This document shows, piece after piece, positions 45,035 through 48,841 of a stretch of DNA of 64,000 nucleotides. The notes under the pieces are model-generated. The model was not told where the DNA came from. It did not search any database and worked only from the letters and a program-made list of their open reading frames with translations. The stretch comes from a virus: the IMG/VR virus record IMGVR_UViG_3300013132_006127. One strand, given 5' to 3'. How positions within the stretch are numbered: the stretch's first letter is position 1; each line of letters opens with the position of its first letter. The translations under genes were made by a program, and so were the position numbers.

Positions 45035-46684
45035 ATGAATACTACTCTAGTTACTGGTATTTGGGATCTTAACAGGTCTGATCTTTCAGATGGCTGGGCA
45101 AGAAAATTTGACCATTATATCAATAACTTTAAAAATTTACTGGAAGCAAATAAAAAGACTCCTATGGTTGTCTTTATAGATCCAGATATAGAGGATATAG
45201 TATGGAGCGTAAGAGATAAAAGCAATACCAAAGTAGTACATCATAAGAAAACAGACTTTGGAGGTAGCTTTTTCCCATTTTTTGATCAGGTTCAGTCAAT
45301 AAGAACAAACCCTAAATGGTTATCACAAGTGGGTTGGCTAAAGGATAGCACACAAGCCAGACTAGACTACTACAATCCACTAGTTATGAGTAAAATGTTC
45401 ATGCTGCATAACGCTAAAATATTCAATTTTTTTAATACGGACTATATATTTTGGATAGATGGTGGGCTAACTAATACTGTTCATCCGGGTTATTTTAGTC
45501 ATGATAACGTCATAGAAAAACTTGAAACAATAGTTGATAAATTTTTGTTTGTCTGTTTTCCATATGAAACAGAAACCGAAATTCACGGGTTTGATATTAA
45601 TGGAATGAAAAAATATTGTCAATCTGATAATGTGTCCAGAGTTGCAAGGGGAGGCTTTTTTGGTGGACACGTAGAAGAAATTTCTAAAGCAAATGATCTA
45701 TATTATACTTTACTAAAAGACTCATTAAGCGAAGGATTAATGGGTACAGAAGAAAGTATATTTACTATCATGACTTATCTAGATCCTGATACTTACAAGA
45801 TAGAAATGATAGAAGACAATGGCCTTGTTTCTACTTTTTTCGAGAAACTAAAAAATATTAACCTAGAAGATAAATCTGTTAAGTCTAACAAAAAACTGCA
45901 TACTAATAATGATATTTTAGTTTATATCAACACTTTTAATACTCCAGCACAACTAGAGTTATTATGTGCTTCATTTTTACAGTATGCTCCTAAATTTTTA
46001 AATAATTCTAAAGTAGTATTAATTAATAATTCAACAACAGAGTTTGATGAAGCATATGATGAAATATGTCATAAATATAGTTTCTTTCAACAAGTTAAAA
46101 AAGGCAATTTAGGAGTTTGCGGAGGTAGACAGTTTGCGGCAGAGCATTTTGCAAATACTGGTAGTAAGTATATGTTTTTCTTTGAAGACGATATGCTTGT
46201 CGATCTAAGCGATACAAAATGTGATTTTGGCTTTAGTAAGAGTTGTCCTGACTTTTACGACACAGTAATTAGAATAATGGACAGAGAGAATTACGATTTT
46301 TTGAAATTAACCTTTAGTGAATTTTATGGACACAACGGAGAACAATGGGCTTGGCATAATGTTCCTCAAGAAAAGAAAAAAGAATATTTTGGAGATATAA
46401 AAAAGAAGCCTCTTACAAAGTTTACAAATATAAAAACTTTCAATAGAACCCCCTATGTTGAAGGCGAAATTTATTATTCTAATTGGCCACAAATTGTAGG
46501 TCAACAAGGCAACAAGACTATGTTTTTAGATACAACTTGGACGTATCCTTACGAACAAACATGGATGAGTCACATATATACACTGACAAAACAAGGTAAA
46601 GTTAATCCTGCTTTACTATTACTTAGCCCTATAACCCATAATAGAGTATATTTCTATGGCAAAGACGAAAGAAAAGAAAACTGA
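45035..46684 (+). CDS. HtrL/WlaTC-like glycosyltransferase fused to a GT-A domain
   Basis: TTLVTGIWD, YNPLVMSKMFML, FWIDGG, GGFFGG, GTEE; second domain FFEDDM; start ATG at 45035. Confidence 0.75.
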   Translation: MNTTLVTGIWDLNRSDLSDGWARKFDHYINNFKNLLEANKKTPMVVFIDPDIEDIVWSVRDKSNTKVVHHKKTDFGGSFFPFFDQVQSIRTNPKWLSQVGWLKDSTQARLDYYNPLVMSKMFMLHNAKIFNFFNTDYIFWIDGGLTNTVHPGYFSHDNVIEKLETIVDKFLFVCFPYETETEIHGFDINGMKKYCQSDNVSRVARGGFFGGHVEEISKANDLYYTLLKDSLSEGLMGTEESIFTIMTYLDPDTYKIEMIEDNGLVSTFFEKLKNINLEDKSVKSNKKLHTNNDILVYINTFNTPAQLELLCASFLQYAPKFLNNSKVVLINNSTTEFDEAYDEICHKYSFFQQVKKGNLGVCGGRQFAAEHFANTGSKYMFFFEDDMLVDLSDTKCDFGFSKSCPDFYDTVIRIMDRENYDFLKLTFSEFYGHNGEQWAWHNVPQEKKKEYFGDIKKKPLTKFTNIKTFNRTPYVEGEIYYSNWPQIVGQQGNKTMFLDTTWTYPYEQTWMSHIYTLTKQGKVNPALLLLSPITHNRVYFYGKDERKEN

Positions 46685-47927
46685 AAATACTATTTTTGTA
46701 CAAATAGCATCATATAGAGACCCTCAGTTAATACCAACACTAAAGGACATGCTTGATAAAGCTAAAAATCCTGACAATTTAAGAATTGGTATAGCTTGGC
46801 AACACAAGAAAGAGGACGAGTGGGATAATCTAGATGAATTTAAAAATGATCCTAGGTTCAAAATTATAGATATTAATTATGAAGAGTCAAAGGGCGTGTG
46901 CTGGGCCAGACACTCTGTTCAACAGCTATATAACGGTGAGACATATACTCTTCAATTAGACTCTCATCATAGATTTGCCAAAGATTGGGATCAAACTTTA
47001 ATAGATATGCTAGTATCTTTACAAAAAGAAGGATATAAAAAACCACTTATTACAGCTTATATACCAAGTTTTGATCCAGATAACGATCCTGGCGCAAGGG
47101 TTAATGAGCCTTGGAAAATGACATTTGATAGATTTATACCAGAAGGAGCGATCTTTTTTCTACCAGCATCATTTGATTCATTTGACGCTAAAGACAAACC
47201 CCTTAGAGGAAGATTTTATTCTGCTCACTTTGCTTTTAGCGTTGGCGATTTTGCTGTAGAAGTGCAACATAATCCAGAGTACTATTTTCACGGTGAAGAA
47301 ATAAGTATTGCTGTTAGAGCTTTTACTCATGGATATGATATATTCCATCCTCATAAGGTTGTGTGTTGGCATGAGTATACCAGAAAAGGAAGATCTAAAC
47401 AGTGGGATGATGATAAGGAATGGGTTAAGAGAAATAATGAGTCTCACAGACAAAACAGGGTTTTATTCGGTATGGATGGTGAGACAGGTTCGATTGATCC
47501 CAAATATGCTTTTGGTAATGTTAGAAGTTTAGATGATTATGAAAAATATTCTGGTATATGCTTTAAAAGGAGAGCTATTCAACAATATGTATTGGACCAT
47601 AAAGAGCCGCCAAATCCTAAATATGAAAATGAAGAACAGTGGCAAAAATCTTTGTTAAATATTTTTAAACATTGTATAGATATATCATATAATCAGGTAC
47701 AAGAAAAAGATTATGACTTTTGGTGCGTGGCATTCCATGGAGAAAATGATGAAACTATATATAGACAGGATGCTAGTCCAGAAGAAATCGCTAATTATTT
47801 TAAAGATACTGATGGATATTGTAAGGTATGGAGACAGTTCAATACAGATAAAAAACCTAAGTATTGGGTAGTATGGCCTCACTCAATAAGCAAAGGGTGG
47901 GGAGAAAGAATTACTGGACAATTATGA
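46656..47927 (+). CDS. GT60-like polypeptide alpha-GlcNAc transferase (Gnt1-like)
   Basis: IFVQIASYRDP, SKGVCWAR, LQLDSHHRF..DWD, YFHGEEI...RAFTHGYD..HP...WHEY. Confidence 0.8.
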   Translation: MAKTKEKKTENTIFVQIASYRDPQLIPTLKDMLDKAKNPDNLRIGIAWQHKKEDEWDNLDEFKNDPRFKIIDINYEESKGVCWARHSVQQLYNGETYTLQLDSHHRFAKDWDQTLIDMLVSLQKEGYKKPLITAYIPSFDPDNDPGARVNEPWKMTFDRFIPEGAIFFLPASFDSFDAKDKPLRGRFYSAHFAFSVGDFAVEVQHNPEYYFHGEEISIAVRAFTHGYDIFHPHKVVCWHEYTRKGRSKQWDDDKEWVKRNNESHRQNRVLFGMDGETGSIDPKYAFGNVRSLDDYEKYSGICFKRRAIQQYVLDHKEPPNPKYENEEQWQKSLLNIFKHCIDISYNQVQEKDYDFWCVAFHGENDETIYRQDASPEEIANYFKDTDGYCKVWRQFNTDKKPKYWVVWPHSISKGWGERITGQL

Positions 47928-48841
47928 TACTGGTATCAGCAATATACTCTAACGGTGTTGAATCTATTGTTGGTGGACGAGGTAGAAATATAGATTTTTA
48001 CTTATCGTCTATGAGAAATATTGCTAATCTTGGTTTACCGTTTGTACTCTATACAGAACCAGAGAATGTAAATAAATCGTATGATTTGTTGTCTCCATTT
48101 TTTCAAAATTTAAAAATTATTCCATATGAATTATCAAGTTTTATTTATTATGATAAGTTTATTGATTGGAAAACAAAAAATTTAAATTTTAATAACTATT
48201 TAAATGATAGAAATGAAATTCTATGTTATTTAAAATCTTTTTGGGTAAAAGATACGATAGAAAATAATTTTTTCTCTGATTTTAATATTGATCAGCAATA
48301 TGTCTGGATAGATTCTGGATTGACCCATCATGGTATCTTTCCAGAAAAGACAGGAGGAGTAGAGTTACTAGTTAAACATAATGATTCGGTTTATTATCCA
48401 AATAATCAATCAAATATTTTTTCACCAGTATTAGGAAATAAATTACAGAAATATATTCAAGAATTAAGTAAATTATTCTTTTGTTCATTAGACTGGCAAG
48501 GAGACTGTTCTAGAATTCTGACGTGTTTGCATAAACACAATTTGACAAACAATACAGAATATATTAAAGAACACCTAATAGGAGGAATATTTGGAGGTAA
48601 AAAAGAATTATTTTTAGACTTTTTCCAACGATACTATTCTTTATTAGATATTTTTCTTAATGAAGGAATTCATTTATATGAAGAGCAAATATTTAGTGCT
48701 TTAAATTTTATAGATCCTGAGCTATTACATAGAGAAAAGTTCAATACTTGGTGGTTTTATTCACCCGGTGAACCAAATAGTTTTTTAAGTAGCGAACAGA
48801 ATAGTTTCTATAAGATTTTTACTAGGATAGCAGAATTATAG
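47924..48841 (+). CDS. HtrL/WlaTC-like glycosyltransferase
   Basis: LVSAIY, YLKSFW, VWIDSG, IGGIFGG, EEQI; ATGA overlap start at 47924. Confidence 0.7.
   Translation: MILVSAIYSNGVESIVGGRGRNIDFYLSSMRNIANLGLPFVLYTEPENVNKSYDLLSPFFQNLKIIPYELSSFIYYDKFIDWKTKNLNFNNYLNDRNEILCYLKSFWVKDTIENNFFSDFNIDQQYVWIDSGLTHHGIFPEKTGGVELLVKHNDSVYYPNNQSNIFSPVLGNKLQKYIQELSKLFFCSLDWQGDCSRILTCLHKHNLTNNTEYIKEHLIGGIFGGKKELFLDFFQRYYSLLDIFLNEGIHLYEEQIFSALNFIDPELLHREKFNTWWFYSPGEPNSFLSSEQNSFYKIFTRIAEL

Follow-up and report, generated by a model that had tools for sequence, protein, structure and literature searches.

We analysed a 64,000-nt stretch of DNA from the IMG/VR virus record IMGVR_UViG_3300013132_006127 (hereafter, the window) and, within it, a block of three overlapping plus-strand genes at positions 45035-48841. 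The three genes probably form a phage-encoded cassette for cytoplasmic protein O-glycosylation, initiated by an enzyme of glycosyltransferase family GT60. Direct support exists for the family membership, folds and catalytic motifs of the encoded proteins, for the coupling of the genes, for a cassette conserved among relatives and for a statistical link between it and proteins carrying Thr/Pro tracts. The window belongs to a large, low-GC (about 33%) T4-like phage, which encodes rIIA, ribonucleotide reductase and a ClpP-like protease, and nearly all genes of the window lie on the minus strand. The cassette opens with open reading frame (ORF) 1 (45035-46684, plus strand; 549 aa), which encodes a tandem GT-A protein and overlaps by 29 nt with ORF2 (46656-47927, plus strand; 423 aa), the gene for the GT60 enzyme. 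ORF3 (47924-48841, plus strand; 305 aa), encoding a distant HtrL-like paralogue, is coupled to ORF2 through an ATGA overlap. Its most plausible start is the ATG at 47924 within the ATGA at the ORF2 stop, and the longest frame opens at a TTG at 47864. The end of ORF3 overlaps by 6 nt with a convergent minus-strand gene (48836-49546). An earlier note on this DNA had described these overlapping genes as encoding an HtrL plus GT-A protein, a GT60-like enzyme and a second HtrL protein, and all three genes are present at the positions given.

Families and folds of the cassette proteins

ORF2 matches the Pfam family PF11397 (GlcNAc) with an E-value of 5.2e-71 and 240.4 bits against a cut-off of 21, and phrog_24687 with an E-value of 1.9e-171. 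In relatives, the match covers positions 2-45 and 98-350 of the 352 positions of the PF11397 hidden Markov model (HMM). The HMM search thus bears out the GT60 membership that the earlier note had assigned to the 423-aa protein. The catalytic GT-A domain comprises approximately residues 11-335 and includes D102-S103-H104, a DxH metal-binding motif that is invariant in 26 homologues. The alignment of these 26 GT60 homologues has a mean column identity of 71%, and many positions within the last 90 residues are likewise invariant. The AlphaFold model of ORF2 (predicted local distance difference test score (pLDDT) 89, predicted template modelling score 0.87) has a GT-A fold. Its best 29 PDB entries are all GT27 polypeptide GalNAc-transferases (Z scores of 19.3-22.8 over about 277 aligned residues), and other GT-A enzymes reach a Z score of 17.6 at most. 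GT27 enzymes are the initiators of animal mucin-type O-glycosylation. Structure prediction, proposed earlier as a check on the function of ORF2, accordingly places its fold nearest to the mucin-type polypeptide GalNAc-transferases. Residues 336-423 form a small beta-sandwich domain, which is seen only in viral GT60 clusters and for which a search of the Atlas returned only generic beta-sandwich look-alikes. Sequence searches of the PDB with a single GT60 protein and with GT60 and ORF1 profiles gave nothing useful. Neither a transmembrane segment nor a signal peptide is evident in the sequences of ORF1, ORF2, ORF3 or the Thr/Pro-tract proteins.

The N-terminal domain of ORF1 (residues 1-285; 45035-45889, plus strand) is GT-A-like and belongs to HtrL_YibB: residues 2-256 match PF09612 with an E-value of 4.9e-9 and 36.6 bits (cut-off 24.1) over HMM positions 2-253 of 267. 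It carries a WIDGG motif, in which D142 is invariant, and residues 1-272 align to the GT6 enzyme BoGT6a (4ayj) with a Z score of 13.4 over 199 residues. The C-terminal domain (residues 290-549; 45902-46684, plus strand), for which no Pfam match was found, is a GT2-like GT-A domain, and its model reaches Z scores of 14-16 to B4GALNT1, GnT-I, POMGnT1, RmlT and TarP. It contains a DXD-type motif, E384-D385-D386, of which D386 is invariant and the other two residues are conserved at 90% or more. D142 and E384-D385-D386 are candidate catalytic acids. The whole model (pLDDT 87) comprises two GT-A domains in one chain, and the whole-chain Foldseek matches are tandem GT-A proteins: Mimivirus R699, LH3, LARGE1, K4CP (the Escherichia coli K4 chondroitin polymerase), PmHS2 and COLGALT1 (E about 1e-10). 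LH3, COLGALT1 and LARGE1 act on protein-linked glycans. The likeness of all these enzymes to ORF1 is architectural only (overall template modelling score of 0.24-0.29, r.m.s.d. of 18-23 Å), and extends no further than the GT-A fold. A polymerase activity of ORF1 would be speculative.

ORF3 aligns over its full length with the N-terminal domain of ORF1 (BLASTP E-value of 4e-10, 24% identity) and matches TIGR02192 (HtrL_YibB) with an E-value of 1.6e-5 and 24.7 bits, far below the cut-off of 264.9; a Pfam search gave no match. These alignments point to ORF3 as a distant HtrL paralogue. Its homologues (cluster 3) lie inside the cassette in 33 loci.

Cassette conservation and Thr/Pro-tract proteins among relatives

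No match to the locus emerged from a megablast search of 50,697 phage records, and at the protein level GT60 homologues occur among those records only in four Xanthomonas and Stenotrophomonas jumbo phages. Close GT60 homologues are present in at least 287 IMG/VR loci, and a collection of 5.8 billion proteins contains at least 7,304 GT60 protein clusters at an E-value of 1e-10 or better, many of them from contigs 150-245 kb long. The sequence of GT60 stays 64-90% identical over thousands of clusters that derive from large phages of lytic type. We examined the gene neighbourhoods of 80 fetched loci of the at least 287 in IMG/VR. In 74 of the 80, no more than a few kb separate GT60 from the ORF1 fusion, and the N- and C-terminal domains of the latter stay fused and adjacent in 73-74. 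Two arrangements recur. In the window and its clade, ORF1 stands directly ahead of GT60; in the other arrangement, GT60 opens the cassette and ORF1 closes it, and 0-8 genes on the same strand stand between the two. Most of these intervening genes encode glycosyltransferases, namely GT25, two GT10 fucosyltransferase-like clusters, GT2, a GT2_2/GT7C-like protein and a weak GT11 match, and others encode an FtsJ/CmcI-like methyltransferase and ORF3-like HtrL proteins. As read from gene order and content, the layout is that of a glycan-building pathway in which a putative first enzyme and a late enzyme are fixed and the decoration differs between lineages.

Two further gene arrangements were seen around GT60. 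Directly after the ORF1 homologue and ahead of a family B DNA polymerase gene, 42 loci carry a gene (cluster 2; L015:11913-12760 and 41 other loci, e.g. L072:12159-12761) for a conserved protein of about 200-280 aa ending in a poly-Thr/Pro-Thr tract, which has no Pfam or PHROG match. Three loci, L347, L351 and L354 (IMG/VR genomes G013, G027 and G044), have a GT60 layout without the ORF1 fusion. GT60 is followed in L347 and L351 by a 265-aa gene and then by a Thr/Pro-tract protein of 540-600 aa, and in L354 the tract gene comes directly after GT60.

The cassette also occurs in a cultured relative, the Xanthomonas jumbo phage XacN1 (AP018399.1), where the order is GT60 (ORF334), a carbamoyltransferase (ORF333), an HtrL-like gene (ORF332), ORF331 and the HtrL plus GT-A fusion (ORF330). 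ORF334 is 49% identical to the GT60 enzyme of the window, and ORF330 is 40-46% identical to ORF1. XacN1 thus resembles the window in its orthologous cassette, with an HtrL-like gene between GT60 and the fusion, and in its many Thr/Pro-tract proteins, and differs in the added carbamoyltransferase and in its genome of 385 kb and 50% GC. About 16 of its proteins carry long Thr/Pro tracts, and their presence at 50% GC indicates that the tracts are not an artefact of low GC content. Six paralogous genes in a row (ORF232-237; 124048-133104) encode proteins of about 400-750 aa, each with a tract of about 70-100 residues that starts near residue 200-210, and two other tract proteins, ORF369 and ORF370, are encoded beside tail sheath genes. 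XacN1 virions contain at least two Schiff-stained (periodic acid-Schiff (PAS)-positive) glycoproteins (PMC5852040, Fig. S4). The authors of that study suggested phage glycosyltransferases as their makers and named neither the family, nor the acceptors, nor the glycosyltransferase responsible (PMC5852040).

To quantify the association, we called a stretch a tract when it was 20 or more residues long and Thr, Pro or Ser made up 70% or more of it, and we counted adjacency over 62 distinct gene maps. A tract is present in 29 of 59 genes immediately upstream of the cassette, in 11 of 60 immediately downstream and in none of 271 inside it, and from the fourth gene outwards its frequency is mostly 0-10%. 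Clustering by sequence divides the upstream tract genes into 17 groups; Thr makes up 40%, Pro 22% and Ser 9% of their tracts. To allow for the relatedness of the loci, we then kept a single locus from each GT60 lineage. With lineages set at 90% identity, a tract remained in 9 of 61 adjacent versus 9 of 252 distant genes (odds ratio 4.7, p = 0.003); at 80% identity, the counts were 5 of 40 versus 7 of 190 (p = 0.04). The adjacency of cassette and tract genes is thus real but not universal: it is found in about a third of lineages and is absent from the clade of the window itself, and adjacency as a universal rule is rejected.

We also reversed the test by selecting viral records (30 kb or longer) on the sole criterion of a (TP)5T-coding tract, with records picked for a (GS)5G tract as controls. 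PF11397 was found in 10 of 40 (TP)5T records versus none of 32 (GS)5 controls (Fisher p = 0.0017). In seven of the ten positive records, including lineages without ORF1, a tract gene stands at most three genes away from GT60 or the cassette. Genome-wide tests on relatives covered, among others, G001, a complete relative that is collinear with the window. The complete GT60-positive genomes G001, G002 and G003 encode 9, 5 and 12 tract proteins (1067-1658 tract residues). For two large phages negative for GT60 the numbers are 0 and 3, with short tracts (104 residues) of the poly-Pro or Ser type. The co-occurrence of GT60 with Thr/Pro-tract proteins across related phages, which the earlier note had suggested examining, is therefore observed, often with the genes adjacent.

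The globular parts of the tract proteins include DUF285 (BspA-like) repeats, CBM_4_9, Laminin_G_3 and collagen-like tail-fibre segments. Of the tract proteins encoded upstream of GT60, about half (L017:2796-3686, L045:5299-7941 and relatives) begin with a conserved Cys-containing domain of about 70 aa (MQVIEITSL...), followed by a Thr/Pro linker and a second small Cys-rich domain; this may be a common anchor or recognition module. In the GT60-negative genome G065 (IMG/VR, 261 kb), two adjacent large proteins encoded at 83896-89197 have poly-Pro instead of Thr/Pro tracts.

Proposed mechanism and competing explanations

We propose that the soluble GT60 enzyme ORF2 would start the glycan chain, most likely with an alpha-linked N-acetylhexosamine from a UDP-sugar, on Thr (or Ser) hydroxyls of fibre- or adhesin-like proteins encoded by the phage itself, within their long linkers rich in Thr and Pro. 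Further sugars would then be added by ORF1, the tandem GT-A protein, and by the HtrL-like ORF3. In other phages of the lineage, extra transferases encoded between GT60 and ORF1 (GT25, GT10 fucosyltransferase-like, GT2, methyltransferase and carbamoyltransferase) would give lineage-specific glycans. The acceptor, donor sugar, linkage, order of action and virion destination of the products are those that we infer. GT60 enzymes are the polypeptide alpha-GlcNAc-transferases of protists, among which Dictyostelium Gnt1 acts on a hydroxyproline of Skp1. Hydroxyproline was rejected as the main acceptor: a search for the prolyl hydroxylase family PF13640 gave no match in the relatives G001-G004, three of which are at least 90% complete, with the control positive in 2 of 14 genomes. 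Lack of a prolyl hydroxylase makes Thr/Ser rather than hydroxyproline the likely acceptor. Regarding the earlier proposal that GT60 primes O-glycosylation of phage proteins, its core passes all the comparative checks that the earlier note had suggested and is supported by the HMM match, the fold, the co-occurrence with tracts and the PAS-positive virions of XacN1, and the specific acceptor, the sugar, the involvement of a second glycan gene island and the "coat" are unproven. A wider picture is quite possible, and we advance it tentatively: a vast and mostly uncultured lineage of large phages from freshwater and soil would run a eukaryote-like mucin-type O-glycosylation in the bacterial cytoplasm, with GT60 and the tandem GT-A protein as fixed brackets around fast-changing transferases, so that each lineage would display its own fucosylated, methylated or carbamoylated glycan on the long Thr/Pro stalks of fibres and adhesins as a variable phage glycocalyx.

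Several observations weigh against GT60-initiated glycosylation of phage proteins. After thinning, the adjacency is moderate, with about 30% of lineages having a tract gene no more than two genes from the cassette, and in the clade of the window (L001-L012 and G001) the cassette adjoins no tract gene at all. The sole tract protein of the window is encoded 15 kb from the cassette, and its neighbours are genes of unknown function. Shared ancestry and genome size are confounders in the co-occurrence tests, and GT60 and Thr/Pro tracts may both mark one lineage of large phages. The stained bands of XacN1 were neither identified nor tied to ORF334. Finally, HtrL is known only from lipopolysaccharide (LPS) or lipooligosaccharide (LOS) core loci (Pfam description; Acinetobacter baumannii OC loci), and its activity is unproven.

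The last point favours a cassette that remodels the host envelope, acting on LPS/LOS core, O-antigen or capsule intermediates rather than on phage proteins, for example to block superinfection or change a receptor. The name given by the JGI to homologues, "glycosyltransferase involved in cell wall biosynthesis", the LPS-type families among the variable cassette genes (GT25, GT2 and GT10) and the large polysaccharide-type island elsewhere in the window fit the same idea. We nevertheless regard it as unlikely. The cassette lacks a flippase, a polymerase, a ligase and an initiating phosphoglycosyl-transferase, and its proteins have no evident membrane segments. The conservation of GT60 over thousands of clusters from large lytic-type phages is unlike that of host-specific envelope morons, the fold of ORF2 is nearest to peptide-directed enzymes, and the association with Thr/Pro-tract genes would be left unexplained. 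The last two points also speak against hypermodification of phage DNA by glycosylation of a hydroxymethylated pyrimidine, as by the T4 glucosyltransferases and the recently described GT-A and GT-B DNA glycosyltransferases. Phage glycosyltransferases do often act on DNA (10.1101/2023.12.21.572611; PMC13326640), the cassette adjoins a family B DNA polymerase gene in many loci (clusters 2 and 4), and in XacN1 it stands beside a carbamoyltransferase and replication genes. Complete genomes G001 and G002, however, have no ThyA-family gene (PF00303, the family of dCMP/dUMP hydroxymethylases), and PF11397, GT60 and HtrL are unmentioned in 10.1101/2023.12.21.572611 and PMC13326640. A search of four relatives for Tet/JBP (PF12851) also gave no match, a weak negative since the control was silent. 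We consider this DNA-directed role highly improbable.

Another explanation accepts that Thr/Pro-rich phage proteins are glycosylated and places them away from the virion surface, as intracellular scaffolds or as secreted, injected or matrix-binding proteins, in which case there would be no "glycocalyx". The tract protein of the window is indeed encoded in a neighbourhood of unannotated genes, beside those for a ClpP-like protease and a sigma factor, many tract proteins lack structural annotation, and those of XacN1 include a 2823-aa phosphodiesterase and products of genes amid replication genes. Against such a location stand the fibre- and adhesin-type domains and collagen-like tail-fibre matches of several tract proteins, the position of XacN1 ORF369 and ORF370 beside tail sheath genes, the Schiff-positive bands in XacN1 virions and, in the window, the fibre-type Mtd_N gene adjoining the tract gene. 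On balance, a purely non-virion destination appears improbable, and glycosylation of the phage's own fibre- or adhesin-like proteins remains the reading that we prefer.

The cassette in its window and among known systems

Within the window, GC skew is positive solely over the cassette block (+0.17 at 46-48 kb) and negative elsewhere, as fits genuine plus-strand coding. The block had been described as the only multi-gene plus-strand unit, with its own promoter. It is the only large plus-strand operon, but not the sole plus-strand unit, since a second, small one at 61433-62599 is conserved in G001, the closest complete relative. In the 160-bp divergent intergenic region (44875-45034), which has sigma-70-like matches in both directions, the promoter claim rests on a plus-strand match ahead of ORF1 (44979-45008; TTGACT-18-TATGTT, 9/12), and a stronger match lies on the minus strand (44955-44928). 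Such matches are not clearly above chance in this AT-rich region, where a consensus scan found 32 versus 24 ± 5 expected, and a terminator scan was likewise not above chance. The cassette is followed immediately downstream by three protease-like genes in a row (phrog_9683, phrog_3677 and phrog_9683; 48836-51215, minus strand), which keep their position in the 11 closest loci.

The candidate acceptor in the window, a putative virion protein, is the 447-aa product of 28253-29596 (minus strand). An 89-residue Thr/Pro/Ser tract, the sole such tract in the window, occupies its residues 81-169 (29090-29356), and no signal peptide is visible in this protein. G001 (238 kb, complete with terminal repeats) is collinear with the window over its positions 164-221 kb, and at the syntenic place it encodes a 1094-aa protein with four Thr/Pro tracts. 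Beside that protein lies a 56-residue stretch that is 55% identical to the N terminus of the 28253-29596 protein. A shared head with a variable distal part is a pattern typical of fibre proteins. G001 has, in addition, six giant tract-protein genes in a row at 13.8-45 kb. PHROG searches gave no structural annotation for the ten genes around the tract gene of the window. The tract gene adjoins 30059-31495 (minus strand), which encodes a fibre- or receptor-binding-type protein with an Mtd_N domain (PF18454, E-value of 5e-14) and N-terminal matches to tail-fibre PHROGs; Mtd is the major tropism determinant of Bordetella phage BPP-1.

A separate glycan island at 10133-24466 (minus strand) encodes a GT4+GT2 fusion, WbsX, two polysaccharide pyruvyl transferases, NeuB, a cytidylyltransferase, an ATP-grasp protein and an RgpF-like protein. 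The earlier note had suggested that this island could supply extension and capping chemistry. It has no counterpart in the collinear genome G001, which retains the cassette, indicating that the cassette is independent of the island; as a required partner the island is unsupported. Elsewhere in the window, a GT4 glycosyltransferase gene (37362-38438, minus strand), 67% identical in G001, adjoins an IMPDH/GMP-reductase-like gene (38476-39753, minus strand).

We found no publication on phage GT60 or PF11397, and the literature found on HtrL function and on phage O-glycoproteins contains no study of this system except the remark on XacN1. To our knowledge, glycosylated phage particles have been shown in few cases only, with other enzyme families. 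If our proposal is correct, the bacterial cytoplasm would be the site of a mucin-type system in which the Thr/Pro acceptor is dense, the initiator is GT60/GT27-like and extension is modular, and this system would be spread over environmental phage genomes in their thousands. Current views of fibre stiffness, resistance to proteases, adhesion to particles or mucus, and host recognition in large phages would then have to be reconsidered, and the proposal would bear on the origin of the GT60 and GT27 enzymes. Bacteria could also be made to produce mucin-like glycoproteins with the soluble, cytoplasmic enzymes of the cassette. Since XacN1 is in culture and has this cassette, the hypothesis can be tested directly.

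Among known systems, the GT60 enzymes of protists are the closest family relatives of ORF2, and those of Trypanosoma cruzi and Dictyostelium are mucin-type initiators. ORF2 shares with this family a strong full-length HMM match and a GT-A fold with DxH, is predicted to be soluble and cytoplasmic as is Gnt1, and has candidate acceptors, the Thr/Pro-rich mucin-like tracts, that resemble those of the mucin initiators. It differs in being phage-encoded and in its extra C-terminal beta-sandwich, found only in the viral clade; the likeness was drawn through the family HMM. Unlike in the Skp1-type pathway, no prolyl hydroxylase partner accompanies it in the phage relatives. The nearest solved structures are those of GT27 enzymes such as human GalNAc-T2 (PDB 2ffu, 4d0z), which likewise have a DxH motif and a catalytic domain with an appended C-terminal domain. 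Sequence identity to ORF2 is only 10-16%, with no sequence-level match, the C-terminal domain is of the ricin-type lectin class in GT27 and a small beta-sandwich in ORF2, and GT27 enzymes are type II membrane proteins of the Golgi, in contrast to the predicted soluble state of the phage enzyme. Virus-encoded glycosylation of virion proteins has precedents in the capsid and tail tube of mycobacteriophages (echoed in PMC11256854) and in Vp54 of chlorovirus PBCV-1 (cited in PMC5852040). As in those systems, the virus brings its own cytoplasmic glycosyltransferases, presumably for its own structural proteins. The phage cassette differs from them in its enzymes, GT60 and HtrL/GT-A proteins, in its candidate acceptors, the long Thr/Pro linkers of fibre and adhesin proteins, and in the variable gene content held between two fixed genes.

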